DNA from: Bacteroidota bacterium
GTDB lineage: Bacteria; Bacteroidota; Bacteroidia; Bacteroidales; VadinHA17
DNA length: 63,215 bases
Direction: 5' to 3'
NCBI GenBank assembly: GCA_030706785.1
Contig: JAUZNW010000001.1
Location: forward strand, 1 to 63,215
Below the pieces are notes generated by a model, which was given only the letters and a program-made list of their open reading frames with translations, was not told where the DNA came from and made no database searches. Of this stretch, positions 2,448-39,061 are shown piece after piece. The position numbers and the translations under genes were made by a program. Position 1 is the first letter of the stretch. Each line of letters starts with the position of its first letter.

Positions 2448-2471
2448 ATTCTCTCTGTTTTATAATGATGA

Positions 2472-4283: not shown

Positions 4284-4330
4284 CTGAAAAATAATTTCAT
4301 TTCTGGGCAAAGTAACTAAGAATCGGCGAA

Positions 4331-5287
4331 TTATTTGAACTGGGCTCTGTAATCTCTTGGCGACAGACCTTCGGTCCTCAGAAATTGCTTATTGAAATTT
4401 GATATGCTTGAGAATCCGCATTCGGCAGCTACCTTGTGGATCTGGTATTCAGTTTCACGAAGCAGGTAGCAGGCCTTGTTAAGCCTTACCCTGTTCAGGT
4501 ATTCAATAAATCCTGCACCGCAGTTCTTTTTGAAGTACCTGCTGAACGCGTAGGGACTCAAATGGGCCACCCTTGATATTCTCTCCAGCGAGATGTTTTT
4601 AGAATAGTTTTCCCTTATGTAGTTATATACTGCCGTCATTTTCTTGTTTCCGCGTTCGTCAAATGCCTGCTTGTAGTTCTCGGAACAAAGCGTGCTTCTT
4701 TTTTCTGAGGTGCATAAAATTTTCAGGAGGCTGAAGAAATGTATGACTTTTTCGATACCCTTGCTGGCTATCATTCGTGTCAGGCAGACTTCTGCATTTT
4801 TAGCATCTTCAACAGAAAAAGCCAGTCCTCTCTCAGATTCTATAAGCAGTTTTTTAACAGTGTGCATTTCATGCTGTGACAGGAGAGCCTCGCCCAGGGA
4901 TGAAAGCTTGAAATGAAGGGTTATTCCCCTGTCCTGAGGGGTTAAAGGCTTAATTTTATAGTAATTCCAGCAGTGAGGGATATTGCTTGCTATCAGCACC
5001 AGGTCGTACTGGTCAAAAAGTTCGACACTGTCACCGACAATCCGTGTACCGTTGCTTTTTGTATTCAGGGTAATCTCATATTCAGGGTGAAAATGCCAGA
5101 ACCCGTTTGTGTCGGTTATGTATTCAGCCCTGAAGCCTCCTGAATCATCATATGAAATCTTCTCGAGTTCAGCGACCATTGTTGTTAGAACAATAGTGAA
5201 TATCAGGTTACTATCAAATTTAAACAATATTTTGTCAACTCCCTGTATGCTTTCATCAATATAAAACACTATTTCATCAAGGAACAT
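4331..5287 (-). CDS. AraC-family transcriptional regulator (cupin-like N-domain plus double HTH)
   Basis: 318-aa ORF. The C-terminus (ISLERISRVAHLSPYAFSRYFKK ... GFSSISNFNKQFLRTEGLSPRDYR) is a typical AraC HTH pair. It lies directly upstream of, and co-directional with, the two dehydratase genes. Confidence 0.85.
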   Translation of the reverse strand: MFLDEIVFYIDESIQGVDKILFKFDSNLIFTIVLTTMVAELEKISYDDSGGFRAEYITDTNGFWHFHPEYEITLNTKSNGTRIVGDSVELFDQYDLVLIASNIPHCWNYYKIKPLTPQDRGITLHFKLSSLGEALLSQHEMHTVKKLLIESERGLAFSVEDAKNAEVCLTRMIASKGIEKVIHFFSLLKILCTSEKRSTLCSENYKQAFDERGNKKMTAVYNYIRENYSKNISLERISRVAHLSPYAFSRYFKKNCGAGFIEYLNRVRLNKACYLLRETEYQIHKVAAECGFSSISNFNKQFLRTEGLSPRDYRAQFK

Positions 5288-26818: not shown

Positions 26819-26820
26819 TT

Positions 26821-26915
26821 GGTTATAGGTGATTGGTGATTGGTGATTGGTGATTGGTTGTTGGTTGAAGGATCGAATGTAAAAACCTAATATCCAATAA
26901 CTAATAACCAATATC
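26821..26915. repeat. Heptanucleotide tandem repeat (GGTGATT)x4 with degenerate flanking units, plus an imperfect inverted CCAAT-rich arm
   Basis: 26821-26869 reads ggttata ggtgatt ggtgatt ggtgatt ggtgatt ggttgtt ggttgaa. 26893-26915 (ccaataactaataaccaatatcc) is a degenerate reverse complement of the same unit. It lies between convergent genes. Confidence 0.85.
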
Positions 26916-26919
26916 CTTA

Positions 26920-28209
26920 TCATCTCCTGTTCCTGGAAATAAGATAGCGCATAGGATAGAAGATCTTCTGCAGCAGTCGAAGGTCCTCAGTTATTATTTC
27001 AGCTGTACCCTGCATGTTTTGTGTAAATTCGAGCTTTTTCCCGTAAAGGGTCACCAGGCCTGAAGGAAGTTTAAGCTCTATTATGTAGTTATCACCGGAT
27101 GGGACGAGTGATTTTGAGTTCACTATTCCTCTTACCATACCATATTGCAGGTACGGGAATCCGCTCAGCTTAATGTTCACTTCCTGACCAACTTTAACCT
27201 TACCTGACCTGTGCATCTTAAGGTTTATCCTCCCGATAAAATCTCCGGCATCAAACGGAACTATACTTAAAACCGGTTCATCCTTGGTGACTGTCTGATT
27301 CTCGCTCCAGAATTTTGTAAAAGTCACTATACCAGTCACCGGAGAGATAAGCAGATAGTTATTCTCCCAGATTTTTATCTGGGCTTTGAGGTTCATAAGC
27401 GATTCATTCAGAACAGAATAGTATTTTTCCCTCTCCTGGATTCTGGTGATCTTATAGTCCTGCAGCAATTGTCTTTTTTCAGCCAGTTCGATCGATTTCG
27501 CGGAATGGTCGAGCTTTACCTGCTGAAGATCAATATTCTGCTTGAGGAGTGACTGGCGCGATTTCTCAAGATCACTTTCGGAAAGGACACCGTTAACATG
27601 CAGCATTGAATCCCTTCCGAATTTTCTTTCCTCAAGCAACTGGTTCTCCGCAAAAAGTTCTTCCTTGACCTTCACCTTGCCGATATAAACAAGGATATTG
27701 TCAATTTCCTCAGTGAGAGAGGTGATTTTATTCCCGTAATAATCATTCAGATTATAATTATAGTAGTCCGAAAGGCTTTTCAGGAATGTGCCCCAGAACG
27801 GCTGCAACTCACCAAGCTCAGTAAAGTCCGGAAATCTTGCAAGTACAAGCTTCTCAGGATTGCTGATAGTATCAACCAGCATCTTAAGCCGGTTAACCTC
27901 ACTGATCGATGCTGCGGTCTCCATCACTGCAATCAATCTGCCCGACGTGATACTGTCCTTGTCGTTGACGTACAGGTTTTTGATCCTGCCGGTAATTTTA
28001 GACAGGAGAGTAACGGGGGGATTGACTGTTGTTATTTCGACCTGGGCAGGAACAATATCGGGATACTTAATTAACCATGCCAGGAAAACAATCAAAATGC
28101 ATACGATAAGTATGATGGTACTTCCCCATCTCAGTATCCTTCCCGGAGGGCGTCCCATTATTTCGCTTACAGGCTCTGAGTATACGATATCGTCTCTATT
28201 TTCTTCCAA
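26920..28209 (-). CDS. HlyD-family secretion/membrane-fusion protein (bacteriocin-exporter accessory type)
   Basis: 429 aa. It has an N-terminal cytoplasmic stretch and one TM (WGSTIILIVCILIVFLAWLI). It then has a coiled-coil hairpin region and a C-terminal beta-barrel. The gene is adjacent to and co-directional with the PCAT gene. Confidence 0.8.
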   Translation of the reverse strand: MEENRDDIVYSEPVSEIMGRPPGRILRWGSTIILIVCILIVFLAWLIKYPDIVPAQVEITTVNPPVTLLSKITGRIKNLYVNDKDSITSGRLIAVMETAASISEVNRLKMLVDTISNPEKLVLARFPDFTELGELQPFWGTFLKSLSDYYNYNLNDYYGNKITSLTEEIDNILVYIGKVKVKEELFAENQLLEERKFGRDSMLHVNGVLSESDLEKSRQSLLKQNIDLQQVKLDHSAKSIELAEKRQLLQDYKITRIQEREKYYSVLNESLMNLKAQIKIWENNYLLISPVTGIVTFTKFWSENQTVTKDEPVLSIVPFDAGDFIGRINLKMHRSGKVKVGQEVNIKLSGFPYLQYGMVRGIVNSKSLVPSGDNYIIELKLPSGLVTLYGKKLEFTQNMQGTAEIITEDLRLLQKIFYPMRYLISRNRR

Positions 28210-28217
28210 CTTCAGGT

Positions 28218-30404
28218 TTAATTGCCCAGTTCAAGCTGGTTTTTTACCAGATTAAAATATGCTCCTCTTTTTTCGATAAGGGTCTGATGATCACCGGTCT
28301 CAATTATCTGACCGCTGTCAAGGACCACGATCTTATCAGCATTCCTTACCGTGCTAAGGCGATGCGCTACAATTATTACGGTCTTACCCTTGAAAAATTC
28401 TGCCAGGTTTTCGACTATGACCTTCTCGGTATTTGCATCGAGTGAATTTGTCGCCTCGTCAAAGATCAGGATCTCAGGGTTTTTATAAATTACACGGGCT
28501 ATCAGCAGCCTTTGCTTCTGTCCCTCGCTAAGGCCATGCCCTTCAGAACCGATCTTTGTATTGTAACCGAGAGGAAGTGACTCGATAAGTCCCCTGATAT
28601 TGGCTGTTTCAGCAGCCTTTACCATCATTTCTTCATCTACCGGTGATGAACCTGGTGCTATGTTCCCGGCAATCGTGTCAGGGAACAGATAGCCATCCTG
28701 CATAACAGCCCCGACCTTTTCACGCCATAGCTTCAGACTTATATTAGAGAGACCGGTTTCGCCGACCATTATTTCACCCTTGACCGGCTGATAGAATCCA
28801 AGCAACATTTTCAGAAGCGTTGTCTTTCCACTTCCGCTTACACCCACTACCGCTGTCACCTTATTTTGTTCAATAAGAAGATCTGCGTCCTTCAATGCGA
28901 ATGGGGATCTTGGTCCTTCGTACTGGAACGAAAGATTCCTGACCGTTATGTTCTTGTTTTCAGGCAACCTTCTTACAAGATTCTCAGAATCAGCCTCTTC
29001 GTCTTCCATATTATGGACTTCTGCAAGCCTGTCGAGACTCATTTTTGCATCCTGCGACATCCTGAAGAAACCAATAATCTGACTCACGGGTACATTCATC
29101 TGGCCAATAATGAACTGAACTGCGAGCATCATACCAAGGGTCATGTTCCCTTTAAGGACTGCTGTTGCAGCAACTATAGTGATGAGTATATTCATGACCT
29201 CGCTGATAAATGTGGCTCCTGCTGACTGATATTGTATAAGCCTTAATCCTCTTACCTTCAGACCAAAAAGAGCTGCCTGGTGATATTCCCAGTTCCACCT
29301 CTTACTGAGCTCACTTTGCGTAAGCTTAATCTCCTGCATCCCGTTTATGATGCTGATCAGCTTTGAAACCGAAGCAGACATCTCCTTAAACCGGAGATTA
29401 TCGATCCGTGCACGTGATTTCATGAAGAGGGAAACCCAGAGAATGTACATGGCAGTGCCCACTATGAACAAGGCAACAATCTTAAGGCTGAATATTGCAA
29501 GTACGATGCCGAAAGTAACAAGATTAAAAAAGGAGAACAAGATGCTCAGACTCGCCGAGGTCAGGAATTCCTCTATCCTGTTATTGTCATCAATCCGCTG
29601 CAATATGTCGCCTGTCAGCTTTGAATCGAAGAAAGCTATCGGCAGGGCCATCAGCTTCTGAAGAAATCCTGAAATTATTGCTACGTTCACCCGTGATCCT
29701 ATGTGCAGCAGCAGCCAGCTCCGGATAAACTCGACCGACAATCTCCCGAGGACAAGCGCAAGCTGAGCAAAAAGAATAAGGTAAATAAATCCTATATCGT
29801 TATTGTTCAGACCAATATCTACTATTGATTGTGTAAGGAAAGGAATGATGAGCATTATACAGCTTCCGATCAGAAGACCGATTATCAGCTGTCCCAGATA
29901 TTTGCGATACAGCCTGAAGTAATTCAGGAGGAAGCTGAATCCCTTTTTTGTTTCCTGGTGATCTTCAATATTATAAAGGGCCGGTGTCGGTTCAATTAAC
30001 AGAACCAGTCCCGCCTTTTTACCATCTGCTATGGTGTAGGCCCAGTTTTGCTCAAATTCCTCCCGCGTATATTTTACCAGACCAGTTGCCGGATCAGCAA
30101 CCCAGATCATGCCGTTCTTTATCCTGTAAACGACAGTGAAGTGTCTTTGCTCCCAGTGAACAATACATGGCAGGGTGACTTTTTCCTCAAGAAGCTCAAA
30201 CGGAATCTTAACCCCTAATGTTCTGAATCCCAACGAATCGGCTGCCTCTGAAAGGCCCAGGAAAGATACTCCTCCCCTGGTGATAAAGCATTTCTTCCTT
30301 AAATAATCGATCGGGAAGCTCTTTTTGTAGTAACCCGCAACCATTTTAAGGCATGCAGGTCCGCAATCCATCGCATCATATTGTTTTACAAAGGGAAATA
30401 ACAT
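28218..30404 (-). CDS. Peptidase-C39-domain ABC exporter (PCAT; bacteriocin/peptide cleavage-export transporter)
   Basis: 728 aa. The N-terminal C39 domain has catalytic Cys in QYDAMDCGPACLKMV and His in VHWEQRHFTVVY. It has 6 TM helices. The NBD has Walker A GVSGSGKTT, signature LSEGQKQR and Walker B ILIFDEATNSLD. Confidence 0.92.
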   Translation of the reverse strand: MLFPFVKQYDAMDCGPACLKMVAGYYKKSFPIDYLRKKCFITRGGVSFLGLSEAADSLGFRTLGVKIPFELLEEKVTLPCIVHWEQRHFTVVYRIKNGMIWVADPATGLVKYTREEFEQNWAYTIADGKKAGLVLLIEPTPALYNIEDHQETKKGFSFLLNYFRLYRKYLGQLIIGLLIGSCIMLIIPFLTQSIVDIGLNNNDIGFIYLILFAQLALVLGRLSVEFIRSWLLLHIGSRVNVAIISGFLQKLMALPIAFFDSKLTGDILQRIDDNNRIEEFLTSASLSILFSFFNLVTFGIVLAIFSLKIVALFIVGTAMYILWVSLFMKSRARIDNLRFKEMSASVSKLISIINGMQEIKLTQSELSKRWNWEYHQAALFGLKVRGLRLIQYQSAGATFISEVMNILITIVAATAVLKGNMTLGMMLAVQFIIGQMNVPVSQIIGFFRMSQDAKMSLDRLAEVHNMEDEEADSENLVRRLPENKNITVRNLSFQYEGPRSPFALKDADLLIEQNKVTAVVGVSGSGKTTLLKMLLGFYQPVKGEIMVGETGLSNISLKLWREKVGAVMQDGYLFPDTIAGNIAPGSSPVDEEMMVKAAETANIRGLIESLPLGYNTKIGSEGHGLSEGQKQRLLIARVIYKNPEILIFDEATNSLDANTEKVIVENLAEFFKGKTVIIVAHRLSTVRNADKIVVLDSGQIIETGDHQTLIEKRGAYFNLVKNQLELGN

Positions 30405-30530
30405 TTCCTTACATCCGACCGTTTAGATATGGAAAGTAAAGATATTTATTATTTGATAAAAAACAGCTTACGTTATATACTTAAACAAACCATGCGCTGA
30501 CAGTTTGATACCTAACCTGTCAGGAAATGC

Positions 30531-30538
30531 TATATTTG
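30531..30538 (+). promoter_or_regulatory. Candidate -7 box TATATTTG (TAnnTTTG) for the sigma-factor gene
   Basis: It is an exact match to the Bacteroidota housekeeping -7 consensus, 29 nt upstream of the TTG start at 30567. It overlaps one copy of a TGWCAG repeat. Confidence 0.4.
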
Positions 30539-30566
30539 TCAGTTTATTTGGGAAAAAAATCAGCGA

Positions 30567-31124
30567 TTGTTCCGTAAGATCTCAGATAGCACAATCATTG
30601 ATGGTATCCGTCAACAGGATGATAAGATACTCAACTGGCTTTATGACAACTATCTTCAGACAGTAAGGCATCACGTGCTAAAGAACAGCGGTTCTGAGGC
30701 TGATGTTTCAGATGTGTTCCAGGAATCGATAATCGCTCTTTACAGGCAGATATCGGAGGATGGTTTGAACCTGACCTCCGACCTCAAGGGATATTTTTTC
30801 GGAATCGCGAGGAATATCTGGAGTGCTCAGCTCAGGAAAAAAAACAGAAACACAGAAATTGAAATTGATATACCAGACGAAACCGATAGTGAAGAATCAA
30901 AAAATCCGGTACTCGAGAGAATTGTGAGCCGGGCATTTGCAAAGCTGAACCCGGATGCAAGAATAATACTTACTTTATTTTCTGAGGGTTTTTCCTATCC
31001 TGAGATAGCAGTAAAAATGAATCTCAAGAATGAAACCTATGCACGCCGTAAAAAATATCTCAGCAAGGAAGCTCTGATGGCCTTAATAAAGGAAGATCCT
31101 GAGTACAAGGAATTCCTGGAATGA
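30567..31124 (+). CDS. Sigma-70 family RNA polymerase sigma factor, ECF-like (regions 2 and 4 only)
   Basis: 185 aa. Region 2 is VSDVFQESIIALYRQI ... YFFGIARNIWSAQLRK. Region 4 HTH is SYPEIAVKMNLKNETYARRKKYLSKEAL. It appears to start at TTG, with no in-frame ATG nearby. Confidence 0.8.
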   Translation: MFRKISDSTIIDGIRQQDDKILNWLYDNYLQTVRHHVLKNSGSEADVSDVFQESIIALYRQISEDGLNLTSDLKGYFFGIARNIWSAQLRKKNRNTEIEIDIPDETDSEESKNPVLERIVSRAFAKLNPDARIILTLFSEGFSYPEIAVKMNLKNETYARRKKYLSKEALMALIKEDPEYKEFLE

Positions 31125-34100
31125 GAAGATATCAGGGCGACTATTCCCGAAACAAGAATAATTACAGCACCAATTAACAGGAATATCTGTTTTGACGGGT
31201 AAAGCTGTGAATTGTTCCCGTAAATGACAAGGGATGACCAGAAATAAGGATGTGAGCGCAGCATATCAGCATTCTTCAGGTAGTCGATCCTGGCCTTTCT
31301 CAATGCCGTACTTTTTGTCTCACCCTTCTTCAGATTCCTGTAAAAGTCCTTCACTATCTCGGTTCCTGACCGGTCATCGATTTCCCACATCGACATTATC
31401 ACCGACTGGCTTCCTGCATAGATAAATCCCCTGGCCAGACTTAGTATTCCTTCTCCGGAATGTAACTTCCCTGATCCCGTGTTGCATGAGCTCAGTATCA
31501 CCATCTTGGCCTTCAGAGGAATCCCATAGACTTCATAAGTATTCAGGTTGCCGTCTTCCACTGAGTCTTTTTCCTGATAAAAAAGCATTTTCGAATACAT
31601 GGGGTACTGATCATTAAGGACCGTATGCATTGCAAGATGGATAACGTCATACTTTCCGGCTTCTGACTTAAAAACTGATTCCTTCGCTCCATTATTGATA
31701 CAAAGCTTCCCGTTTGTCAGACTTGTAACAAATTCTGCTTCTATCCTTGCATAAGGGAGATCGCGCAGCTTTGACAATCTTACCTGGCGTAAAATAAGCA
31801 GTGAGTCAACATCAATTGTGCCTGTGTAAACAGGAGCAAATGCTATTACACTGTTGCTAAAATTATTACTCTTTTTCGTGGATTCTGCAAGAAGGGTTGC
31901 AGAGTATGTGTATGAGATCCGGTAATCGTCCATAAGATACGGGATATCCCTGAACTGTGTTTTACCGGCAGGAGCATTACCAGCCGGTATGGCTTCGAAA
32001 GGAATATATGAAAGTATATTATCGGGAGAGATCAGAAGCTTGTCTGATATAAGATATTTTCTGACGGGCTCGAATATTGTCCTGTAAAGAATGCGTCCTG
32101 TCTCCTGAAACTGGGTGAAGCTTGTTCTGGCGCTGGTCAACGGATTTGAAAGCAGATTCCTGAACCTCCTGATGGTTTCAAAAAATCCTGAATCGATTGA
32201 TATTGTAAGCAGCTCCTGGTGCTTTCGGTTCGTAAGGAATATATAAATACAGGTATCAGCAACAACATAATTAAGGTAGTTCGTATTTCTGCCTGTTATT
32301 CTGGGTATATCGTGCGGACCGAGTACACTTGTATTGTATTTTATCTGGTAATATTCGGGATAATTCTTTTCAAGGACATTTATCAGGGAATCCCGTTTTT
32401 GCGTGGCGCTCAGTACAACGTTTTTCCATTCCGAGACGACTGAAGCATCAGTTTTCTTCCCGGCATTCTCTTCTGAAATCATTGCATTGTAGAAACCTAT
32501 TTCCATTTTGAGGCGACGTTCAAGGTCAGCAATTTCAGGAGGAATGTGGAACTGTGTCGCTTTAAGCTCCCTGGTTGATGCCAGCAGGCCTGCAACTTTG
32601 CTTTTTTCTGAATATTCAAAGGCTTTGTCTCTGTATGCTTTATTACCTGTTTGTTTATAGCAAAGGTCAAAATCACGTATTGCATACAGGTATGCATCCC
32701 GGTACCTGTCGCCGAGGATGACCCGGCTGTCTTCCTCGCTGATGTTAATTCTTACCTTCTCAATCAGTCGCACCAGCAGCTCGCTTGTATTAGATGCTGT
32801 CTCAAGAAAATTGTAATATTTGCTTTTACTGTAGAGATCCCAGAGTATCCTGTATTTTGCCTTAAGCACATTTATTGTCCACTGGTCTGCCTCCATCTGA
32901 TCAGGATCGGGATTTCCAAGAGCGGGTAATTTCCCTTTCCCGTTAATCCCGTGGAACAACAACCCCTGAACGACCTCAAGTGCTTTCTCCGCCTCTCCGT
33001 TTCCTGAAAGCGTCAGTGCATATCCCAGGAGAACCTGATCTTTCAATGAAACGTCTTCACTGTGATTGTTTAAATACGAAAGGCATTGTTCATAAAGCCT
33101 AAGTGATTTATTTATATCGATATTGAAAGTTCTGAGGTATTCTGCATAGTTCTTCATAACCTCAAAATATTCTCTTGAATCAGGACCGGAAAAATCCCTG
33201 GCCTTATTTAGAGAATTGATTATCAGGATTTCCCCCTTTCTTATTTTGCCGGCATTTCCGAGTACTATTGCAAAGCTGTTGATCAGGTTGAACGAAAGCG
33301 ATGAATTAGATGATTTTATCAAACTGACCCCCCTGTTAAAATAGTCATCCGATTTCTTATTATTCCCTAAAAAGAAATAGGTGACCGCAAGGGTATTAAG
33401 CAGATTTATGTAATTATCATCTACTCCCAGCGAGAATACCTTGTATACCGATTCGGCTTTCTCGAGATACAGTACCGCCTTGGAATAGTCAGACATCCTT
33501 ACATAGCATGCACCGATACTTGTGTACAGGTTGGCGATATCCGCACCATAGCTTCCCTTGCTGCCGTTTATAAGCTTCAGGGCTGTATTGCCGGTGGCAA
33601 TTGCTTTATTATATTCATTCTGTCCGAAATAAGCTGATACCAGGCTGGAATAACCACTTAGCAGCAAAGGGCTTGATTCGCCGTATAGTTTCTTTTCCAC
33701 TTCCAGGGATTCCAGGGTATATTGTTCCATTTTCCTGTAATCGCCAAGGTTATTATATGCAATCCCCATATTGTAAAGGCATTTTGCAAGAATCTCATCC
33801 TCACTTATCTGTCTCCTGATCGAGGCCGATAACCTGAACCAGTTAATGGCTTCTGAATTTTCCCTCAGGACAAGATAATAAACCCCTATGTAAAACTGTG
33901 AAGCCGATGAAGTCAGGTTATCAATGTTATTACTCTTCAGGATTTTCAGCATCGACTTTACGATTATCCTGGAATTCATAGTGTCGCCTTCGGCAACAGC
34001 AGCTAAAATTTTTGCATTCAGCTTTTCAAGATCCCTCGAAGGATCATCACTCTGGGATCTGTGATCTGTCTCAAACTCCATATCAGAATCATCACTGTTG

Positions 34101-34198
34101 TATGGTATGACATTACTGGCCTGTGTGTCCGAATAATTCCAGCAGGACAGCATGGAGCATACGATCAGGAGCCGCAATATGCGATATAAATAAATCAT
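31037..34198 (-). CDS. Membrane-anchored TPR-CHAT protein (caspase-like Cys protease fold)
   Basis: The ATG at 34198 gives the signal/lipoprotein-like N-terminus MIYLYRILRLLIVCSMLSC. An acidic linker follows, then about 8-10 TPR-like repeats (e.g. AKCLYNMGIAYNNLGDYRKMEQY, ANLYTSIGACYVRMSDYSKAVLY). The C-terminal CHAT domain has His in DVIHLAMHT and Cys in VILSSCNTGSG, followed by GEGILSLARGF. The C-terminal TM helix IFLLIGAVIILVSGIVALI is followed by a basic 35-aa tail. The track start at 34261 is TTG. Confidence 0.85.
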   Translation of the reverse strand: MIYLYRILRLLIVCSMLSCWNYSDTQASNVIPYNSDDSDMEFETDHRSQSDDPSRDLEKLNAKILAAVAEGDTMNSRIIVKSMLKILKSNNIDNLTSSASQFYIGVYYLVLRENSEAINWFRLSASIRRQISEDEILAKCLYNMGIAYNNLGDYRKMEQYTLESLEVEKKLYGESSPLLLSGYSSLVSAYFGQNEYNKAIATGNTALKLINGSKGSYGADIANLYTSIGACYVRMSDYSKAVLYLEKAESVYKVFSLGVDDNYINLLNTLAVTYFFLGNNKKSDDYFNRGVSLIKSSNSSLSFNLINSFAIVLGNAGKIRKGEILIINSLNKARDFSGPDSREYFEVMKNYAEYLRTFNIDINKSLRLYEQCLSYLNNHSEDVSLKDQVLLGYALTLSGNGEAEKALEVVQGLLFHGINGKGKLPALGNPDPDQMEADQWTINVLKAKYRILWDLYSKSKYYNFLETASNTSELLVRLIEKVRINISEEDSRVILGDRYRDAYLYAIRDFDLCYKQTGNKAYRDKAFEYSEKSKVAGLLASTRELKATQFHIPPEIADLERRLKMEIGFYNAMISEENAGKKTDASVVSEWKNVVLSATQKRDSLINVLEKNYPEYYQIKYNTSVLGPHDIPRITGRNTNYLNYVVADTCIYIFLTNRKHQELLTISIDSGFFETIRRFRNLLSNPLTSARTSFTQFQETGRILYRTIFEPVRKYLISDKLLISPDNILSYIPFEAIPAGNAPAGKTQFRDIPYLMDDYRISYTYSATLLAESTKKSNNFSNSVIAFAPVYTGTIDVDSLLILRQVRLSKLRDLPYARIEAEFVTSLTNGKLCINNGAKESVFKSEAGKYDVIHLAMHTVLNDQYPMYSKMLFYQEKDSVEDGNLNTYEVYGIPLKAKMVILSSCNTGSGKLHSGEGILSLARGFIYAGSQSVIMSMWEIDDRSGTEIVKDFYRNLKKGETKSTALRKARIDYLKNADMLRSHPYFWSSLVIYGNNSQLYPSKQIFLLIGAVIILVSGIVALISSHSRNSLYSGSSFIKAIRASLLRYFLRRA

Positions 34199-34448
34199 CA
34201 GAGGTGATCTGATTTTTAGAATTCCCCGCGTAAATATTGCATGTTTATTTAACAAAGCCAATGCAAATATAAAAAATTTGAATGTATATCAATGGTAAGT
34301 AATTGATTACCTTGAAATAACGAATTTTTTGATAAAATATTTGATTTTTCTGTGTCACAAATGGTGTAATACCGACATGTTACAGTGTAATGATCGCAAG
34401 AATTACGAATTACCCGAATTAAGTATCAATGATTAAAACATTAAAGAG

Positions 34449-34586
34449 ATGAAAACCCTGAATTTTGAACCTATCGAAGAAATTTTTGGAGATTACGCTC
34501 TTACTGCGGAAGAAATGATTTGTGTTAAAGGTGGTGATGCCGGAGAACCAATTGTCAAACCAGCTCAGCCGCCGATAAAGATTTGA
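34449..34586 (+). CDS. Double-glycine-leader peptide precursor (45 aa), predicted 16-aa mature peptide DAGEPIVKPAQPPIKI
   Basis: My own translation is MKTLNFEPIEEIFGDYALTAEEMICVKGG/DAGEPIVKPAQPPIKI, with the stop TGA at 34584-34586. The leader ends in an L-x-x-E-E-M-x-x-V-K-G-G motif, typical of substrates of C39 ABC exporters. The ORF is too short for the supplied ORF track. Confidence 0.6.
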   Translation: MKTLNFEPIEEIFGDYALTAEEMICVKGGDAGEPIVKPAQPPIKI

Positions 34587-34604
34587 CAAACCTTTTTTGA
34601 CAGG

Positions 34605-34623
34605 CCTGCTTAAGCGAAGCAGG
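34605..34623 (+). terminator. Stem-loop just downstream of the peptide ORF (weak terminator/attenuator candidate)
   Basis: cctgctt-aagcg-aagcagg forms a 7-bp stem 19 nt after the peptide stop codon. Only a short U-tract (ttcagatt) follows, so termination is probably partial. Confidence 0.4.
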
Positions 34624-34787
34624 TTCAGATTGCAACCCTGTTACCAGGGATTGTTGTCTTGGATTTCGGATACAGGTCTGGACTGATTTTTTCAGCCGGA
34701 CATCGTGTTCATGAGTGCAAATACTGGCACAAGTTGTGCGTATGTATTTGATATATTGAAGTTTGGAATAATTATAAACGCGATATT

Positions 34788-35531
34788 ATGAAAACTATCG
34801 ATTTTTCATACTTCATCGAACGGTATAATGCCGGAGAGATGGACGAAGCTGAGATGCAATGGTTCAGGAAAGAACTAAGGGAAAACCAAAAACTAAGGAA
34901 GGAGGTTGAACTGAGGAATAAAACTGACGATATCCTGAAAAACCAGGATCTGATGAACCTCAGGAACAAGCTCAACGCAATTGAAAAGCAACGGGCTGTT
35001 ACAATGCCTGTGAGGAGAAACCGGCAGCCTGTAATCAAGTATGCCGCCGTAATTGCAGCCCTTATTATATTGGGCAGCCTTGCCCTTTTAACCAACAAAC
35101 GACAGAGTACCGATGAATTGATAGACCGGTACTATAAACCTTATGAGACAGCGTCAGCATCACGATCTGCTGAATTCATAAACAATAGCGATTACAATCT
35201 GGCCGTTGAATACTATAATATCAGGGACTACAGGAACGCTGCAATATATTTCAGCAGAGTTCTTGAAAAAGATCCTGATAACATGCATTCAACACTGCTG
35301 AACGGTATATCAAATTTTGAAATTCAGAATTACTCTGAAGCAAAGCGTTCCTTTTCAAAGGTAATAGACAATAACGACAACTATTATATCGATCATGCCC
35401 AATGGTACCTCGCGATGTGCTACATCCGAACGGATGAAAGAAGCAAGGCTGTCCAGGAGTTGACGTTAATTAAGAATTCGAATACAATCTATACCAAGCC
35501 TGCAAGGAAATTGCTGAGAAACCTCAGGTAA
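34788..35531 (+). CDS. Single-pass anti-sigma-like protein with a periplasmic TPR domain
   Basis: 247 aa. The N-terminal ~85 aa are helical and cytoplasmic (YFIERYNAGEMDEAEMQWFRKELRENQKLRKEVE resembles the N-terminus of Bacteroidota FecR-type anti-sigmas). A positive patch (RRNRQPVIK) precedes the TM helix YAAVIAALIILGSLALL. The C-terminal ~140 aa carry TPRs (AVEYYNIRDYRNAAIYFSRVLEKDPDN). The anti-sigma function is inferred. Confidence 0.65.
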   Translation: MKTIDFSYFIERYNAGEMDEAEMQWFRKELRENQKLRKEVELRNKTDDILKNQDLMNLRNKLNAIEKQRAVTMPVRRNRQPVIKYAAVIAALIILGSLALLTNKRQSTDELIDRYYKPYETASASRSAEFINNSDYNLAVEYYNIRDYRNAAIYFSRVLEKDPDNMHSTLLNGISNFEIQNYSEAKRSFSKVIDNNDNYYIDHAQWYLAMCYIRTDERSKAVQELTLIKNSNTIYTKPARKLLRNLR

Positions 35532-35567
35532 TTGATAAACGGGAAATAGTTACCAACCAATAAAGTA

Positions 35568-36404
35568 ATGTTCAACCTGTCGGGAAATATCAAGGAGGGT
35601 CCGGGAATACCTGAATCAAGGAACCAGGATGAAGCAAAGGTTATGGATCTCTGTAATCAGACCCTGACCAACTGCGCCTCAATTCTGACAGGAATTTCCC
35701 ATGAAATGAGAACGCAAATGAATGCAGTTGTTGCGTTTTCCTTCATGCTTAAAAATAAAGATTACAGTGAAGAGGAAAGAGAAGATTTCAGTAACCAGAT
35801 CTATTCCTCGTGTGAACAAATAATATCACTGTTCGACAATTTTCTTGATTCTGCAATCATTGATACGGGTAATTCAAAGGCAGAACCGGGAATATGCGAT
35901 CCGGACAAACTAATAAACAACTTAATTTCAGAATTCAGGGCTACTTTGAAAAAGGACAGGTACAAGGACCTGATCCTTATGACTGAGAACCAATCGTTGA
36001 GCCCGGCAGAGTGCATCATTGATACAAACAGGCTGACAAGGGTAATTCGTAACCTGTTTGAAAATGCTCTGTCAAACACAAAAGCGGGATATATAAAAGC
36101 CGGCTATTATTTCAGGGATGACAGACTGACTTTTTATATACTCGATTCGGGGCAGGGCTATGCCAAGAACAAAGAATTCCTACAAAGCAGGGATATTGCG
36201 ATCCCTCTTGCCAGGTTCAGTGATACTTATTCGGCAGTCAATCTCGCTCTTACACGCAAGCTTATCCAGTTACTTGATGGATCTGTTTGGATAGAAAACA
36301 ATGGATCAACGGGATCCGGGATCTATTTTTCAATTCCTGCGCCTACCGCAGTATCAGCCGAAAATGTTTTGAACAAATTTTCGAATACCATGAGCACGAT
36401 CTGA
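35568..36404 (+). CDS. Soluble histidine kinase core (DHp plus HATPase_c) without a recognisable sensor domain
   Basis: 278 aa. H-box ISHEMRTQMNAV at about residue 44, N-box RNLFENALSNT, G1 LDSGQG and G2 GSTGSG. There are no TM segments and no adjacent response regulator. Confidence 0.85.
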   Translation: MFNLSGNIKEGPGIPESRNQDEAKVMDLCNQTLTNCASILTGISHEMRTQMNAVVAFSFMLKNKDYSEEEREDFSNQIYSSCEQIISLFDNFLDSAIIDTGNSKAEPGICDPDKLINNLISEFRATLKKDRYKDLILMTENQSLSPAECIIDTNRLTRVIRNLFENALSNTKAGYIKAGYYFRDDRLTFYILDSGQGYAKNKEFLQSRDIAIPLARFSDTYSAVNLALTRKLIQLLDGSVWIENNGSTGSGIYFSIPAPTAVSAENVLNKFSNTMSTI

Positions 36405-36458
36405 TACCAGATGTTCAATTAACCAACCTAGATGTCTGAACAACCCAAGCGTGAGCTG

Positions 36459-36488
36459 AAACAGCTGACCTCCCCGGTCAGCTGTTTT
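36459..36488 (+). terminator. Rho-independent terminator (11-bp stem) after the histidine kinase gene, overlapping the stop of the convergent OmpA-family gene
   Basis: aacagctgacc-tcccc-ggtcagctgtt is followed by ttatttc. Confidence 0.75.
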
Positions 36489-38424
36489 ATTTCTTCAGTC
36501 CTATGATTTTAACTTCAGTCCTTCTGTTGAGCTTCCTGCCTTCATAGGTCACATTATCGCCTACCGGGGATGTATTTCCGTAGCCTTTGTATTTCAGACG
36601 ATCGGATGATATGCCGTTATCAATAAGATAATTAACTACTGAAAGAGCTCTTTTTTCCGACAGTATCTGGTTATGCTCATCAGTGCCCGTGGCATCAGTG
36701 TAACCACCGATCTCAACCTTTATTCCCTTGTTTTCCTTCAGAAGATCGCACAGCTTGTTCAGTTCGGCAAGTGATTCCTTTTTAAGAGTCCAGGAATCAA
36801 CTTCATAGAAGATATTTGCCAGCGACATGCTCTCCCCTATTTTCAGAGGAGATAACCTGATCTTTTTCAGGAATGGTTCCAGTACAGTGTGCTGACCCTC
36901 AAACATAAAATTCTCCGAATAAAACAGATAGCCTTTTTTACTGACATTCAATCCATAATTGTATCCTGATGGCAGGCATACCAGAAAGTTCCCGGCTTCA
37001 TCAGTGGAATTATGTACAACCGTATGCTGCCTTGACAGATTTATCAATTCATACTCAGCGACAAGAGACTGACCGGTTTCCTTATCGGAGACCTTGCCTT
37101 TGAGGTAGGCTACAGGATCAGGCCTTATAGCCTCATAGAGCCTGAATGAGTAAATGTTTTTTCCTGTTTTACCATCCCTGATGGATGAAAAATACGCCTT
37201 CTGGCCGCTTGATTCTATTACAAGACCCATCTCATCGTTGTAGGTATTGATCGGATAGCCAAGATTAACCGGTTCCGACCAGGTGCTGTCATCCTGCATC
37301 CGCGAGAAATAGATATCAAATCCGCCCATTCCCGGCCTGCCGTCCGAAGAAAAATAAAGCGTCTTGCCGTCAAAATGGATAAAAGGTGACATTTCATCAC
37401 CCGGAGTATTTATCTTGTTCCCAAGGTTTCTCGGACGGATCCACTTATTATTACTGTTGAGACGTGAAAACCATAGATCTTTTCCTCCGATACCACCAGG
37501 CCTGTTGCTTGAAAAAAAGAGCATCTGGTCATCAGCGCTGATCGACGGCTGTGATTCCCAGTATTGGGTATTTACAGGACTGCCAAGGTCAACCGGAATA
37601 GTCCATTTACCATGGTTAAAGGCTGAAAAGAAAATATCACAGCTGCCAAGTCCTCCCGGCCTGTTACAACCGGTGAAGAACATATAGGTTCCATCAGATG
37701 ACAAGCTTTGCGCTCCCTCATTATCATCACTGTTAAGAGGGCTTCCGGCATTTACTGCCGTCTGCCATTTATTGCCGGAAAAATAACTGATGTAGAAATC
37801 CTCCAGCCCAGCCTTGCTCAGTCGTCCGTTCTCAACCGGGCGCGGCTGGCGGGTAAATATCATCGTCTGACCATCCGCGGTTATTGACGGCCAGTATTCA
37901 TCATCGGTGGTATTTATCCCGTCTCCCACACTTTCAGGACTGAATGGTACGGGATGCTTAATGGCTTCAACTGCAAACTGGCAGTTCTTAACATTCTTGA
38001 CTGCCAGATCATGGTTCTTCTCGGAAGAGGGCTTCTGTGCCAGGTATATGTTATAGTGACATAGAGCTTTATTATAATCTCCTGACATCATTTCCGCAGT
38101 CGCCATACTGAAAAATACCGGCATGTAAAAAGAGGAATCGATCGATACTGCCGTCTGATAACTTATGGCAGCTTCCGCAAATCTTCGTAGTTTTGACTGC
38201 AGCTCGCCAAGCATCATATAAGCTTCATAAAACCTGTTGTCAGTTTCAATAGCCTGTTTGAAATTTCGCTCTGCACCTGAAAAGTCAAGGTAATCATATG
38301 ACGTCAAACCTTCTTTATAGGCTTTCATCGCTTTTGCAGATGTGGTATGAAATTTCTGTGAGAATCCCTTCTCAGCATTTAAGAAAGCAAAAAAGAATAC
38401 CAGAATGAAAACAAATGATTTCAT
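36487..38424 (-). CDS. OmpA-family protein with TPR, TolB-like beta-propeller repeats, a carboxypeptidase-regulatory-like domain and a C-terminal OmpA domain
   Basis: Signal peptide MKSFVFILVFFFAFLNA from the ATG at 38424. It has repeated W.SQPSISADG / FFSSNRPGG motifs. The C-terminal OmpA motif is GYTDATGTDEHNQILSEKRALSV. The track ORF extends to 38619 but would then overlap queE. Confidence 0.85.
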   Translation of the reverse strand: MKSFVFILVFFFAFLNAEKGFSQKFHTTSAKAMKAYKEGLTSYDYLDFSGAERNFKQAIETDNRFYEAYMMLGELQSKLRRFAEAAISYQTAVSIDSSFYMPVFFSMATAEMMSGDYNKALCHYNIYLAQKPSSEKNHDLAVKNVKNCQFAVEAIKHPVPFSPESVGDGINTTDDEYWPSITADGQTMIFTRQPRPVENGRLSKAGLEDFYISYFSGNKWQTAVNAGSPLNSDDNEGAQSLSSDGTYMFFTGCNRPGGLGSCDIFFSAFNHGKWTIPVDLGSPVNTQYWESQPSISADDQMLFFSSNRPGGIGGKDLWFSRLNSNNKWIRPRNLGNKINTPGDEMSPFIHFDGKTLYFSSDGRPGMGGFDIYFSRMQDDSTWSEPVNLGYPINTYNDEMGLVIESSGQKAYFSSIRDGKTGKNIYSFRLYEAIRPDPVAYLKGKVSDKETGQSLVAEYELINLSRQHTVVHNSTDEAGNFLVCLPSGYNYGLNVSKKGYLFYSENFMFEGQHTVLEPFLKKIRLSPLKIGESMSLANIFYEVDSWTLKKESLAELNKLCDLLKENKGIKVEIGGYTDATGTDEHNQILSEKRALSVVNYLIDNGISSDRLKYKGYGNTSPVGDNVTYEGRKLNRRTEVKIIGLKK

Positions 38425-38431
38425 TCCGAAC

Positions 38432-39061
38432 TCAGGGTATGTGCATGTACTTATGAATCTGAAGAGAGATCCTCCAGACAGGATTCTTCTTGACATAGCT
38501 GACAATTTCCGGAATAATGACTTTGAAACGGCTCCATTCAGGCTGTAAAAAAAGCTTGCATTCCGGCCCGACCATTTTCTTATATCTTTCAGCCTGTTTA
38601 AAATCATCCTGAGTTTCAATTATAACTTTCAGTTCATCAGCCTGTTTGAAAATATTGTCTGACGGAGGCATGTTTTTCTTGGGCGACAGACATATCCAGT
38701 CCCATTTCCCGCTTAATGCGTAAGCTCCTGAAGTCTCTATGAAGGTACTTATTTTTCTCTCCCGGAGCATGGAGCACAAGGTTTCAAGATTCCACATGAG
38801 CGGCTCTCCGCCGGTCACTACAACTGATTTGGCGCCTGATTGTATTGCATGTCCGGCAATGGTTTCAGTTTCAATAAGAGGGAACATTTCAGCATTCCAT
38901 GAAAAACGTGAATCACACCAGTTACAGCCGATATCGCAACCTCCCAGGCGTATAAGCCATGCAGCCTTACCTGCATTAAATCCTTCCCCCTGGATGGTAA
39001 AAAATTCCTCTACCAGGGGTAGCTTTGTACCATCACTCACACCATCCAAAGCTTTTGCCAT
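38432..39061 (-). CDS. queE: 7-carboxy-7-deazaguanine synthase (radical SAM)
   Basis: 209 aa. It has EEFFTIQGEGFNAGKAAWLIRLGGCDIGCNWCDSRF (the CxxxCxxC cluster motif in QueE context). Confidence 0.9.
   Translation of the reverse strand: MAKALDGVSDGTKLPLVEEFFTIQGEGFNAGKAAWLIRLGGCDIGCNWCDSRFSWNAEMFPLIETETIAGHAIQSGAKSVVVTGGEPLMWNLETLCSMLRERKISTFIETSGAYALSGKWDWICLSPKKNMPPSDNIFKQADELKVIIETQDDFKQAERYKKMVGPECKLFLQPEWSRFKVIIPEIVSYVKKNPVWRISLQIHKYMHIP

Follow-up and report, generated by a model that had tools for sequence, protein, structure and literature searches.

A predicted periplasmic, membrane-anchored TPR-CHAT protease in a conserved sigma factor and double-glycine peptide module of Bacteroidota

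Here we examine a gene for a large tetratricopeptide repeat (TPR) protein that ends in a CHAT protease domain, together with the genes around it, on a 63,215-nucleotide stretch of Bacteroidota DNA (the window, positions 1-63,215 of contig JAUZNW010000001.1, whose numbering is used for all coordinates below). The best reading of the evidence is that the CHAT protein serves as the protease component of a conserved, uncharacterised Bacteroidota signalling module, which would comprise a sigma factor of the extracytoplasmic function (ECF) type, a putative anti-sigma factor that crosses the membrane once and carries a small TPR domain in the periplasm, a soluble histidine kinase, at least one peptide with a double-glycine (GG) leader and usually a C39-ABC/HlyD exporter. 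The features of the locus are collected in Table 1. The CHAT gene product is identical to the NCBI-called 1053-aa protein P0001, which is listed as 'MAG: CHAT domain-containing protein [Bacteroidota bacterium]', where MAG stands for metagenome-assembled genome. An in-frame TTG further upstream, at 34261, is an improbable start because it coincides with a TATATTTG box that matches the promoter element TAnnTTTG considered below. An earlier note on this DNA, made from its letters without database searches, had laid the protein out as a signal sequence, an acidic linker, a TPR array, a CHAT domain, a C-terminal transmembrane (TM) helix and a basic tail, and that order is borne out by the open reading frame (ORF), the Pfam matches and the composition. 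Pfam resolves the TPR array into TPR_12, in four stretches, and TPR_1/2/8/10, and an AlphaFold2 model folds residues 53 to 620 as uninterrupted helix pairs; across the linker the confidence of the model is low, with a predicted local distance difference test score (pLDDT) below 50 for residues 17-50.

Table 1. Genes, protein segments and motifs at the CHAT locus, in window coordinates
Feature	Coordinates	Strand	Evidence or remarks
HlyD-family membrane-fusion adaptor of exporter	26920..28209	-	HlyD_3; TIGR01843 E=6e-23; kept in most loci
C39-peptidase ABC exporter	28218..30404	-	Peptidase_C39, ABC_membrane and ABC_tran; TIGR01193, TIGR03796
ECF-type sigma factor, 185 aa	30567..31124	+	Sigma70_r2, r4_2 and ECF profiles; TIGR02937 E=5e-18
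TPR-CHAT protein gene	31037..34198	-	1053 codons from ATG, plus stop
Basic tail, 30 aa (residues 1024-1053)	31040..31129 (stop codon included: 31037..31129)	-	6 Lys/Arg, 0 Asp/Glu
Predicted C-terminal TM helix IFLLIGAVIILVSGIVALI (residues 1005-1023)	31130..31186	-	Kyte-Doolittle
CHAT (caspase-fold) protease domain (residues 698-995)	31214..32107	-	Pfam PF12770
Codon of Cys905, putative catalytic Cys	31484..31486	-	Invariant column
Codon of His858, putative catalytic His	31625..31627	-	Invariant column
TPR/helical-repeat region, ~570 aa (residues 53-620)	32339..34042	-	Pfam TPRs and modelled helix pairs
Acidic disordered linker (residues 28-52)	34043..34117	-	8 Asp/Glu vs 1 Lys/Arg
Predicted signal peptide, Sec/signal peptidase I type, or uncleaved signal anchor (residues 1-27)	34118..34198	-	
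Promoter-like motif GTCACAAA-N12-GACATG	34354..34379	+	Upstream of peptide gene
Double-glycine-leader peptide gene, 45 aa	34449..34586	+	MKTLNFEPIEEIFGDYALTAEEMICVKGG / DAGEPIVKPAQPPIKI; homologous ORFs in 66/67 loci
Putative anti-sigma factor, 247 aa	34788..35531	+	TPR Pfam matches; weak NF052375 'antisigma' E=0.005
Soluble histidine kinase (HisKA and HATPase_c)	35568..36404	+	Pfam; no sensor or TM domain
TPR-PD40(TolB-like)-OmpA protein	36487..38619	-	In most close loci extending so far

Membership of the CHAT family is clear, since the Pfam profile matches over its full length (all of positions 1-289 of 289; E=4.1e-55; 187.7 bits, the cut-off being 24) and the putative catalytic dyad is conserved. 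Conservation was followed in two sets of proteins: a close set of 120 listed homologues, the window protein included, which share 49-100% identity and all come from Bacteroidales/Bacteroidota MAGs, and a wider set obtained by running a CHAT-only profile against 1.84 billion cluster representatives, in which the best 150 were examined and 119 of these were full-length. The histidine lies in DVIHLAMHT (residues 851-859) and the cysteine in VILSSCNTGSG (residues 900-910), and the columns of His858 and Cys905 are invariant in an alignment of 27 sequences (27/27), among the family members (120/120), in the aligned domains from the top 150 representatives (151/151) and in every distant homologue whose alignment covers both positions, which makes more than 270 sequences overall. 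Both residues of the dyad are therefore present, as the earlier note had stated, and their spacing of 47 residues is close to the 45 of DdvA (H862/C907), a TPR-CHAT protein of Myxococcus xanthus to which we return below.

The AlphaFold2 model was built from a 27-sequence alignment (mean pLDDT 73, predicted TM-score 0.71), and its best fold matches in the PDB are Csx29 (8eey_B, E=1.4e-9), then DdvA (8rw5, E=1.6e-9 over 1048 aligned columns) and separases, all of them at low TM-scores of 0.19-0.35. Searches of the PDB by sequence returned TPR proteins only for the whole protein, and no match at E<=10 for a CHAT-only profile of the close homologues. Membership of the Csx29 family was tried and rejected, because the NCBIfam model NF041237 gives only 12 bits (E=0.068) where 300 are required; no CRISPR-like repeat array was found in the window, and no cas gene among the genes scanned around the locus. 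We read the product as a predicted caspase-fold cysteine protease with an apparently intact active site that would be exported by a Sec signal.

The N-terminus of the window protein carries, on heuristic grounds only, the features of a Sec substrate of signal peptidase I (SPase I), that is, a basic n-region, a hydrophobic h-region and small residues at positions -3 and -1. R6 and R9 are followed by an uncharged hydrophobic stretch of 11 residues (10-20) and then by a TQA/S site at 27 that satisfies the (-3,-1) rule. An h-region is present in 104 of the 120 listed homologues, and 101 of these 104 also have a (-3,-1) site of SPase I type. At the other end of the chain, all 120 have a C-terminal TM segment (a C-terminal 19-mer with a Kyte-Doolittle mean of at least 1.6), preceded by 15 residues that are nearly neutral and followed by a short tail with a median length of 5 aa and a net charge of about +3. 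Internal TM-like segments are absent from the window protein, and from 116 of the 120. Among the 119 full-length distant representatives the C-terminal TM segment and basic tail recur in 115 and the N-terminal h-region in 106. Still remoter CHAT proteins often keep the signal peptide and end directly after the CHAT domain, and these are predicted to be soluble and extracytoplasmic; CHAT proteins that bear signal peptides are plentiful in the databases. Such features amount to more than chance, because they are conserved across hundreds of homologues. Since three things are conserved, namely a signal sequence, a body free of internal TM segments and a C-terminal TM helix with its Lys/Arg stub, read by the positive-inside rule, the TPR-CHAT body is very probably periplasmic, held by a C-terminal stop-transfer helix on the periplasmic face of the inner membrane. 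This is the topology that had been predicted from the letters, with the whole body in the periplasm and the tail alone in the cytoplasm. About 10 residues separate the last CHAT strand from the TM helix; the TPR array would project into the periplasm, and the CHAT domain would sit roughly those 10 residues off the membrane.

The N-terminus had also been described as signal- or lipoprotein-like, and here only the first half of the description survives, as a signal of Sec type, for the lipobox is not conserved. A lipoprotein (SPase II) reading was rejected: the M-L-S-C of the window protein fits the lipobox [LVI][ASTVI][GAS]C poorly and has an Arg within the 6 residues that should be uncharged, and no more than 16 of the 120 listed homologues contain a string resembling a lipobox, at inconsistent positions. 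The tail, for its part, had been counted at 35 residues; it has 30, with a net charge of +6. A tail of 29-30 aa is found in only 4 of the 120 (the window protein and P0002-P0004), and the remainder have 3-10 aa. The long tail is wholly antisense to the final 29 sigma codons; the sigma gene is convergent with the CHAT gene and overlaps it at the 3' end by 88 nt (31037-31124). The tail is best seen as a clade-specific read-through extension and no feature of the family, and the sigma codons on the opposite strand put a constraint on its basic composition. In most relatives the sigma and CHAT frames abut stop to stop or overlap by some 10-20 nt, with no intergenic terminator. The convergent overlap of the two genes could give rise to transcriptional interference or antisense effects between them.

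Gene neighbourhoods were compared at two depths. In the close family, scanned with one genome per species, 79 loci were recovered, all from Bacteroidales MAGs and with CHAT identity down to 33%. An ECF sigma gene and a gene for a putative single-pass anti-sigma factor lie directly beside CHAT in all 79, and the order of eight genes is identical in each close locus that is long enough. The linkage argument relies on a second set of 11 distant loci, because the flanks of the close family, made up of housekeeping genes (DUF349, pyrG and yidC to one side and, to the other, queE-like, 5'-nucleotidase and NamZ genes), are just as syntenic. These 11 are the contigs of homologues from other subfamilies; the query was P0156, which represents a subfamily and to which they have 23-38% identity. 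Sigma and putative anti-sigma genes adjoin CHAT in 9 of the 11, which form 8 independent contexts with differing flanking genes. The arrangement that had struck the earlier reader as unusual, a predicted envelope-located CHAT protease beside a sigma gene, is thus the norm in the family (79/79 close and 9/11 distant loci). As to the sigma/anti-sigma pair of that reading, the sigma factor stands; the two genes do not adjoin as a pair but flank the CHAT gene, on the strand opposite to it, and the second of them encodes an anti-sigma factor only putatively.

The distant arrangements differ considerably in detail. In L080 the genes convergent with CHAT are those for a sigma factor and a TPR paralogue, and the genes divergent from it encode a GG peptide, a TPR protein, a HisKA kinase and a LytTR protein; L083 has the subfamily and the flanks of L080, with sigma and TPR paralogue in place and the upstream side lost at the contig edge. 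L084 carries a GG peptide, a TPR protein, a kinase and a C39 ABC gene on one side of CHAT and the sigma gene on the other. L085 has three GG peptides in tandem, CHAT, an anti-sigma-like protein of 501 aa with multiple repeats, and sigma; a GG peptide, CHAT, a 274-aa protein and sigma make up L086; and L087 consists of a GG peptide, CHAT, a 348-aa TPR protein, sigma and a kinase. On the P0294 contig a TPR protein, a sigma and a small ORF diverge from CHAT. L088 has CHAT, sigma and a 277-aa anti-sigma gene, and L089 a CHAT homologue with a signal peptide and no TM segment, a zinc anti-sigma factor with an HxxxCxxC motif and a sigma factor; no GG peptide was found in either L088 or L089, although sigma and anti-sigma lie beside CHAT in both. 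The sigmas of L080 and L083-L087 are full-length homologues of the window sigma (phmmer E-values of 1e-17 to 1e-35), whereas those of L088 and L089 are not, and on the strength of these six homologues the sigma factor and the CHAT protein have co-diversified as a unit within Bacteroidota. Taken together with the fusion of anti-sigma and TPR-CHAT functions in DdvA (a Rosetta-stone argument), the linkage in the distant loci is good evidence for a functional partnership between the CHAT protein and the sigma/anti-sigma pair.

The 247-aa protein proposed as the anti-sigma factor is modelled with four N-terminal helices, a TM helix at residues 86-101, a juxtamembrane helix at 108-115 and a module of three TPRs at 134-246. 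Four of its residues are invariant (Y116, Y119, R126 and S127), and pLDDT falls below 50 over residues 123-130; the R126/S127 end of the motif lies in this low-confidence loop, 15-26 residues past the TM helix. A fold search with the protein was dominated by the TPR module, whose best matches are the periplasmic YbgF and TPRs that bind C-terminal peptides (Hop TPR2A-MEEVD, CHIP and SycD). The protein also carries a motif, Y-x-x-G-E-M...E...F..E-L, with a spacing that by eye is like that of HxxxCxxC in the zinc anti-sigma factor of L089, and in other subfamilies a paralogue of the protein is encoded directly after the sigma gene (L080, L083, L087 and the P0294 contig). From this architecture, the motif spacing and the weak NF052375 match, an anti-sigma identity is plausible.

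Between the CHAT gene and the anti-sigma-like gene, and as the immediate divergent neighbour of CHAT, lies an unannotated-looking ORF with a GG leader, which is found at this place in 66 of the 67 loci that show both genes. In the window the leader MKTLNFEPIEEIFGDYALTAEEMICVKGG is followed by a 16-aa Pro-rich core, DAGEPIVKPAQPPIKI. The leader is conserved as ...EF.LSNEEMI.V[KR]GG. Most cores begin with an acidic spacer of variable length that ends in Asp/Glu and continue as P-[IV]-x-[KL]-P-x-x-P-P-[IV]-[KR]-I-COOH, and in one sub-clade the core ends in ...PTRPPVIIEI or ...PPVTEPEI. The cores of other subfamilies differ and are Cys-free too, most of them being rich in acidic, Pro or Gly residues. 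GG-leader peptides also stand beside the distant CHAT genes in 5 distant loci, and tandem copies occur, five of them identical behind a single promoter motif in L015 (8821-9742, - strand) and three diverged in L085 (6388-6866, - strand). No Pfam or NCBIfam model matches the 45-aa peptide. In our own judgement these peptides are not bacteriocin-like, being short and neither cationic nor hydrophobic. With a conserved leader that ends in GG, and a C39 ABC exporter and HlyD adaptor nearby, export of the peptide is predicted. The C39 exporter gene is divergent from the sigma gene and is found in every close locus that extends that far, and also in the distant L084.

The peptide gene has a promoter-like motif of its own, about 70 nt 5' of the start codon and after a T-tract. 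The pattern GTCACAAA-N9-14-GACATG has a single match in the window, where 0 are expected, and 56 loci contain it exactly one time each, in every case upstream of the peptide gene. For comparison we counted TAnnTTTG and TAnnTTT[GA], which we take to be the Bacteroidota housekeeping -7 consensus, and the looser form GTCACAA-N9-15-GACATG upstream of three genes. The sigma gene has TAnnTTTG in 76/77 loci, TAnnTTT[GA] in 77/77 and the GACATG motif in 0; the C39 exporter gene has 7/78, 77/78 and 0, respectively; and the peptide gene has 3/62, 7/62 and 52/62, against a background for TAnnTTTG of 5% of random 150-nt windows. On the CHAT side of the region between peptide and CHAT genes TAnnTTTG is present in 32/57 loci, and the peptide-operon motif is never found upstream of CHAT. 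Other subfamilies have a conserved motif of their own at the equivalent place, such as GGGTTACCTTTT...GAAT[AT]TATA in L080 and L085. A generic promoter and terminator scan gave counts no better than shuffles. This distribution fits a scheme in which the sigma factor, the protease and the exporter would be expressed constitutively from housekeeping-type promoters and the peptide/anti-sigma/kinase operon would be driven by an alternative sigma factor; we infer that the operon depends on the window sigma. A conserved leader sequence, GAATTACCC..AAGTATCAAT, follows the peptide-gene motif and has no match in Rfam, and Rfam gave no match anywhere within 30000-36500 at E<=1.

The remaining neighbours can be dealt with briefly. 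The kinase gene lies downstream of the gene for the 247-aa protein, in most close loci and in the distant L080, L084 and L087; the kinase has the H-box SHEMRTQ, and its gene is seemingly co-transcribed with the anti-sigma-like gene. The module is without a response regulator, and in L080 a LytTR-only protein follows the kinase. The TPR-PD40-OmpA protein may or may not belong to the module, as the housekeeping genes beside it are equally syntenic. A short tandem repeat (TTGGTGA x 5.7) lies at 26819-26865, just downstream of the HlyD gene. Three of the distant loci hold further observations. The 501-aa anti-sigma-like protein of L085 (10223-11728, - strand) has about four tandem 'x-E-F-E-x-E-L...D...L-R' modules before its TM segment and TPRs. 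In L082, positions 1511-4812 encode a 68-aa ORF with a GG-type leader (...EEMGEFLGG followed by NTKSG...), a LytTR response regulator and a TPR-containing His_kinase near a CHAT gene that has no sigma neighbour, and this group is a possible variant of the same theme with peptide sensing by a two-component system. In L088, positions 875-5073, upstream of a CHAT-sigma pair from a soil metagenome, form a protease cluster of Peptidase_M48, Peptidase_C14 (caspase) and a second, short CHAT-like gene.

Proteases of the caspase fold that act outside the cytoplasm are in themselves well known, for example the gingipains of Bacteroidota. The protein closest to the present one is DdvA of M. xanthus, a single-pass anti-sigma factor with a periplasmic TPR-CHAT region of ~900 residues and the dyad H862/C907 (PDB 8rw5; PMC11506125, Sci Adv 2024), for which self-cleavage in trans within the juxtamembrane linker has been proposed by the authors as the site-1 step that precedes RseP (PMC11506125). 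The statement of the earlier note that characterised CHAT proteases act in the cytoplasm is outdated by DdvA, in which the TPR-CHAT region is periplasmic and coupled to an ECF sigma factor (PMC11506125). DdvA-like fusions have been reported only from Myxococcota and from one Comamonas (PMC11506125). The likeness extends to a periplasmic TPR array followed by CHAT, a near-equal dyad spacing, the ECF sigma coupling and the proposed site-1 role, and DdvA is the second-best structural match of the window model; similarity of sequence is undetectable beyond the profile level. There are differences of layout, however. DdvA has a zinc anti-sigma domain, a TM segment, a linker and TPR-CHAT in one polypeptide, whereas here the anti-sigma-like domain is on the separate 247-aa protein. 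The window CHAT protein has a signal peptide and a C-terminal anchor, and no TM segment N-terminal of TPR-CHAT; its N-terminus matches no anti-sigma profile in Pfam or NCBIfam. Membership of the DdvA type was rejected for want of an anti-sigma domain on the polypeptide and with the TM segment at the opposite end. DdvA also lacks a three-helix motif and controls a CBASS/CRISPR island, whereas the module described here holds a peptide gene and an exporter, in Bacteroidota. In function the module would work most like a split, trans-acting version of DdvA.

Other known systems share parts of this picture. Csx29, the best structural match, has the TPR-CHAT architecture and is a CHAT protease that releases a sigma response, as it cleaves Csx30, which controls an ECF sigma factor (PMC10028731); unlike the window protein it resides in the cytoplasm, where it is bound to Cas7-11 and target RNA activates it. 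Separases, also among the top structural matches, have a C-terminal domain of the caspase fold that comes after a large region of helical repeats, but they are eukaryotic, cytoplasmic or nuclear, far larger, regulated by securin and lack a membrane anchor. DegS, the Prc/CtpB-type proteases and PrsW have the role proposed here, an extracytoplasmic clip of a single-pass anti-sigma factor near the membrane, with unrelated folds and catalytic types (serine or metallo), so that the analogy is one of function only. In Actinobacteria a CHAT protein is conserved beside the ECF54 sigma factors and proteolytic control has been proposed; the phylum and the sigma group are different, and no anti-sigma factor has been described. 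The ComC/ComAB and BlpC/BlpAB systems have in common with this locus a precursor with a GG leader, a C39 ABC exporter, some tandem copies and a histidine kinase in the locus. Those systems are Gram-positive, whereas the host here is Gram-negative, and the candidate receptor is a periplasmic TPR domain here and a polytopic kinase there; the ECF sigma output and the CHAT protease set the present locus further apart, and peptide signalling is a candidate role. No description of a module of CHAT, sigma factor and GG peptide was found in the literature searched, of which coverage was incomplete.

We propose, tentatively and at slightly less than an even chance, that the CHAT protease controls the ECF sigma factor by a site-1 cut of the anti-sigma protein, here a polypeptide of its own, within the conserved and disordered loop that adjoins the membrane, and that the exported peptide is the likely trigger, by way of one of the periplasmic TPR domains. 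The exporter would cleave the peptide after the double glycine and export it, and the short Pro-rich product would be bound by the periplasmic TPR domain of either the anti-sigma protein or the CHAT protein. Binding would activate the CHAT protease or steer it to its target, which it would then cut in the juxtamembrane loop; a site-2 protease of RseP type would free the sigma factor, and the sigma factor would drive the special promoter of the peptide/anti-sigma/kinase operon. Taken as a whole, a self-contained peptide-pheromone circuit, running from GG peptide through TPR sensing and a CHAT site-1 cut to the release of an ECF sigma factor and, through it, auto-induction of the peptide operon, is a scheme that we consider rather unlikely. 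The site-1 role had been put forward in the earlier note, by analogy with DegS or Prc; as a hypothesis it gains from the sigma/anti-sigma linkage (79/79 and 9/11 loci) and from the DdvA fusion, and as an idea it is not novel, since the authors of DdvA had it.

Several observations weigh against this proposal. Site-1 cleavage by the CHAT domain is undemonstrated in DdvA itself, where the trigger signal is not known, which blocks the test (PMC11506125). The CHAT gene is co-transcribed with neither the sigma gene nor the anti-sigma-like gene. Synteny among the close loci was rejected as proof of linkage, the housekeeping flanks being equally conserved, and in two of the distant loci, L081 (Aquimarina) and L082, the CHAT gene has no sigma neighbour. 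The anti-sigma identity of the 247-aa protein received no help from Pfam, where the N-terminal 120 aa gave chance matches only, nor from a PDB profile search, which was not significant (LisH-type chance matches), nor from hhalign against the zinc anti-sigma factor of L089 (probability 2%), and its homologues in the databases are named only 'TPR protein'. The topology rests on signal-peptide and TM calls made with our own sequence heuristics plus conservation. Lastly, pLDDT in the model of the CHAT protein is below 50 at residues 858-869 and 891-944, that is, around the putative catalytic residues.

Two alternative readings concern where the protein is and what holds it there. The N-terminal stretch might be no signal at all, in which case the protein would be tail-anchored with a cytoplasmic body like Csx29 and separase. 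The h-region of the window protein is indeed short, at about 11 residues, and 16-19 of the 120 homologue records have no N-terminal h-region; several of these, however, start inside or just past the position of their relatives' signal peptide and look like truncated gene calls. A cytoplasmic body would also turn the Lys/Arg cluster after the helix outward, contrary to the positive-inside rule, and it would part the protein from partners that are periplasmic on present evidence, namely the TPR domain of the 247-aa protein and the peptide after its export, as well as from the precedent of DdvA, whose TPR-CHAT is periplasmic. We regard this reading as highly improbable. Not much better is the chance that the C-terminal helix and basic cluster form a cleavable sorting signal, which would be compatible with an extracytoplasmic location and would release the protein to the periplasm or the surface. 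A hydrophobic helix followed by a terminal Lys/Arg cluster is the general shape of exosortase and rhombosortase sorting signals, and the C-terminus fits this shape, and many remoter CHAT proteins with a signal peptide have no C-terminal TM segment; yet no signature motif is conserved before the helix, where the residues vary (PLYYS, TPLYKS, SPIF...), and no sortase-like gene is conserved in the module.

The other two alternatives accept an extracytoplasmic protease and give it different work. In one the substrate is the exported peptide, which the CHAT protease would either trim from its acidic spacer to the mature Pro-rich form, much as the leaders of some class II lanthipeptides are trimmed in a second step, or degrade as a reset. 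The spacer resembles another site of processing, as in most copies it ends in Asp/Glu immediately ahead of the conserved core; the peptide gene adjoins CHAT in 66 of 67 close loci and in 5 distant ones, and protease and peptide would share a compartment. A Pro at P1', on the other hand, is unfavourable for caspase-type enzymes, and the precedents of DdvA and Csx29 favour substrates of the anti-sigma kind. What decides the ranking is that the sigma link reaches loci without GG peptides (L088 and L089) and is thus older and broader, so that we place the anti-sigma substrate above the peptide substrate and consider the latter rather unlikely. A little less likely still is that the protein is merely a member of the regulon, a general envelope protease whose targets would be unrelated envelope proteins, a scaffold or a TPR receptor, with no part in site-1 cleavage. 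Neighbourhood cannot separate the regulators of an ECF sigma factor from its targets (PMC7826278), CHAT genes lie near the ECF54 sigmas of Actinobacteria in a role that is not known, and the two distant homologues in L081 and L082 have no sigma neighbour. The CHAT gene, however, does not look like a sigma target, since in many loci its box is of housekeeping type and in none does it have the motif of the peptide operon; the invariant dyad argues against a purely scaffolding role, and the DdvA fusion joins anti-sigma and TPR-CHAT functions directly.

If the CHAT protein does act on the anti-sigma protein, the locus would be of use beyond its own family. DdvA is the only studied periplasmic TPR-CHAT protein, and its trigger is not known. 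Here the protease and the putative anti-sigma factor are separate proteins, so that cleavage would take place in trans, and a candidate ligand, an exported peptide of 12-20 residues, is encoded with its exporter in the same locus; for these reasons the hypothesis of a CHAT site-1 protease can be tested directly. The coupling of a periplasmic CHAT protein to an ECF sigma factor is known from DdvA; what would be new is a split, trans-acting and C-terminally anchored DdvA-like variant with a GG peptide and C39 exporter, widespread in Bacteroidota. The CHAT-domain profile of the family has 110,695 matches among cluster representatives at E<=0.001, and at least hundreds of proteins of the anchored architecture are annotated only as 'CHAT domain-containing protein'. 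Should the peptide prove to be a signal, a Gram-negative phylum would have a form of cell-cell signalling that is based on peptides and runs through an ECF sigma factor; and the pheromone circuit, if true, would provide the first demonstrated CHAT site-1 protease and the first pathway from a peptide to an ECF sigma factor, and would supply the ligand that is missing from the DdvA model.

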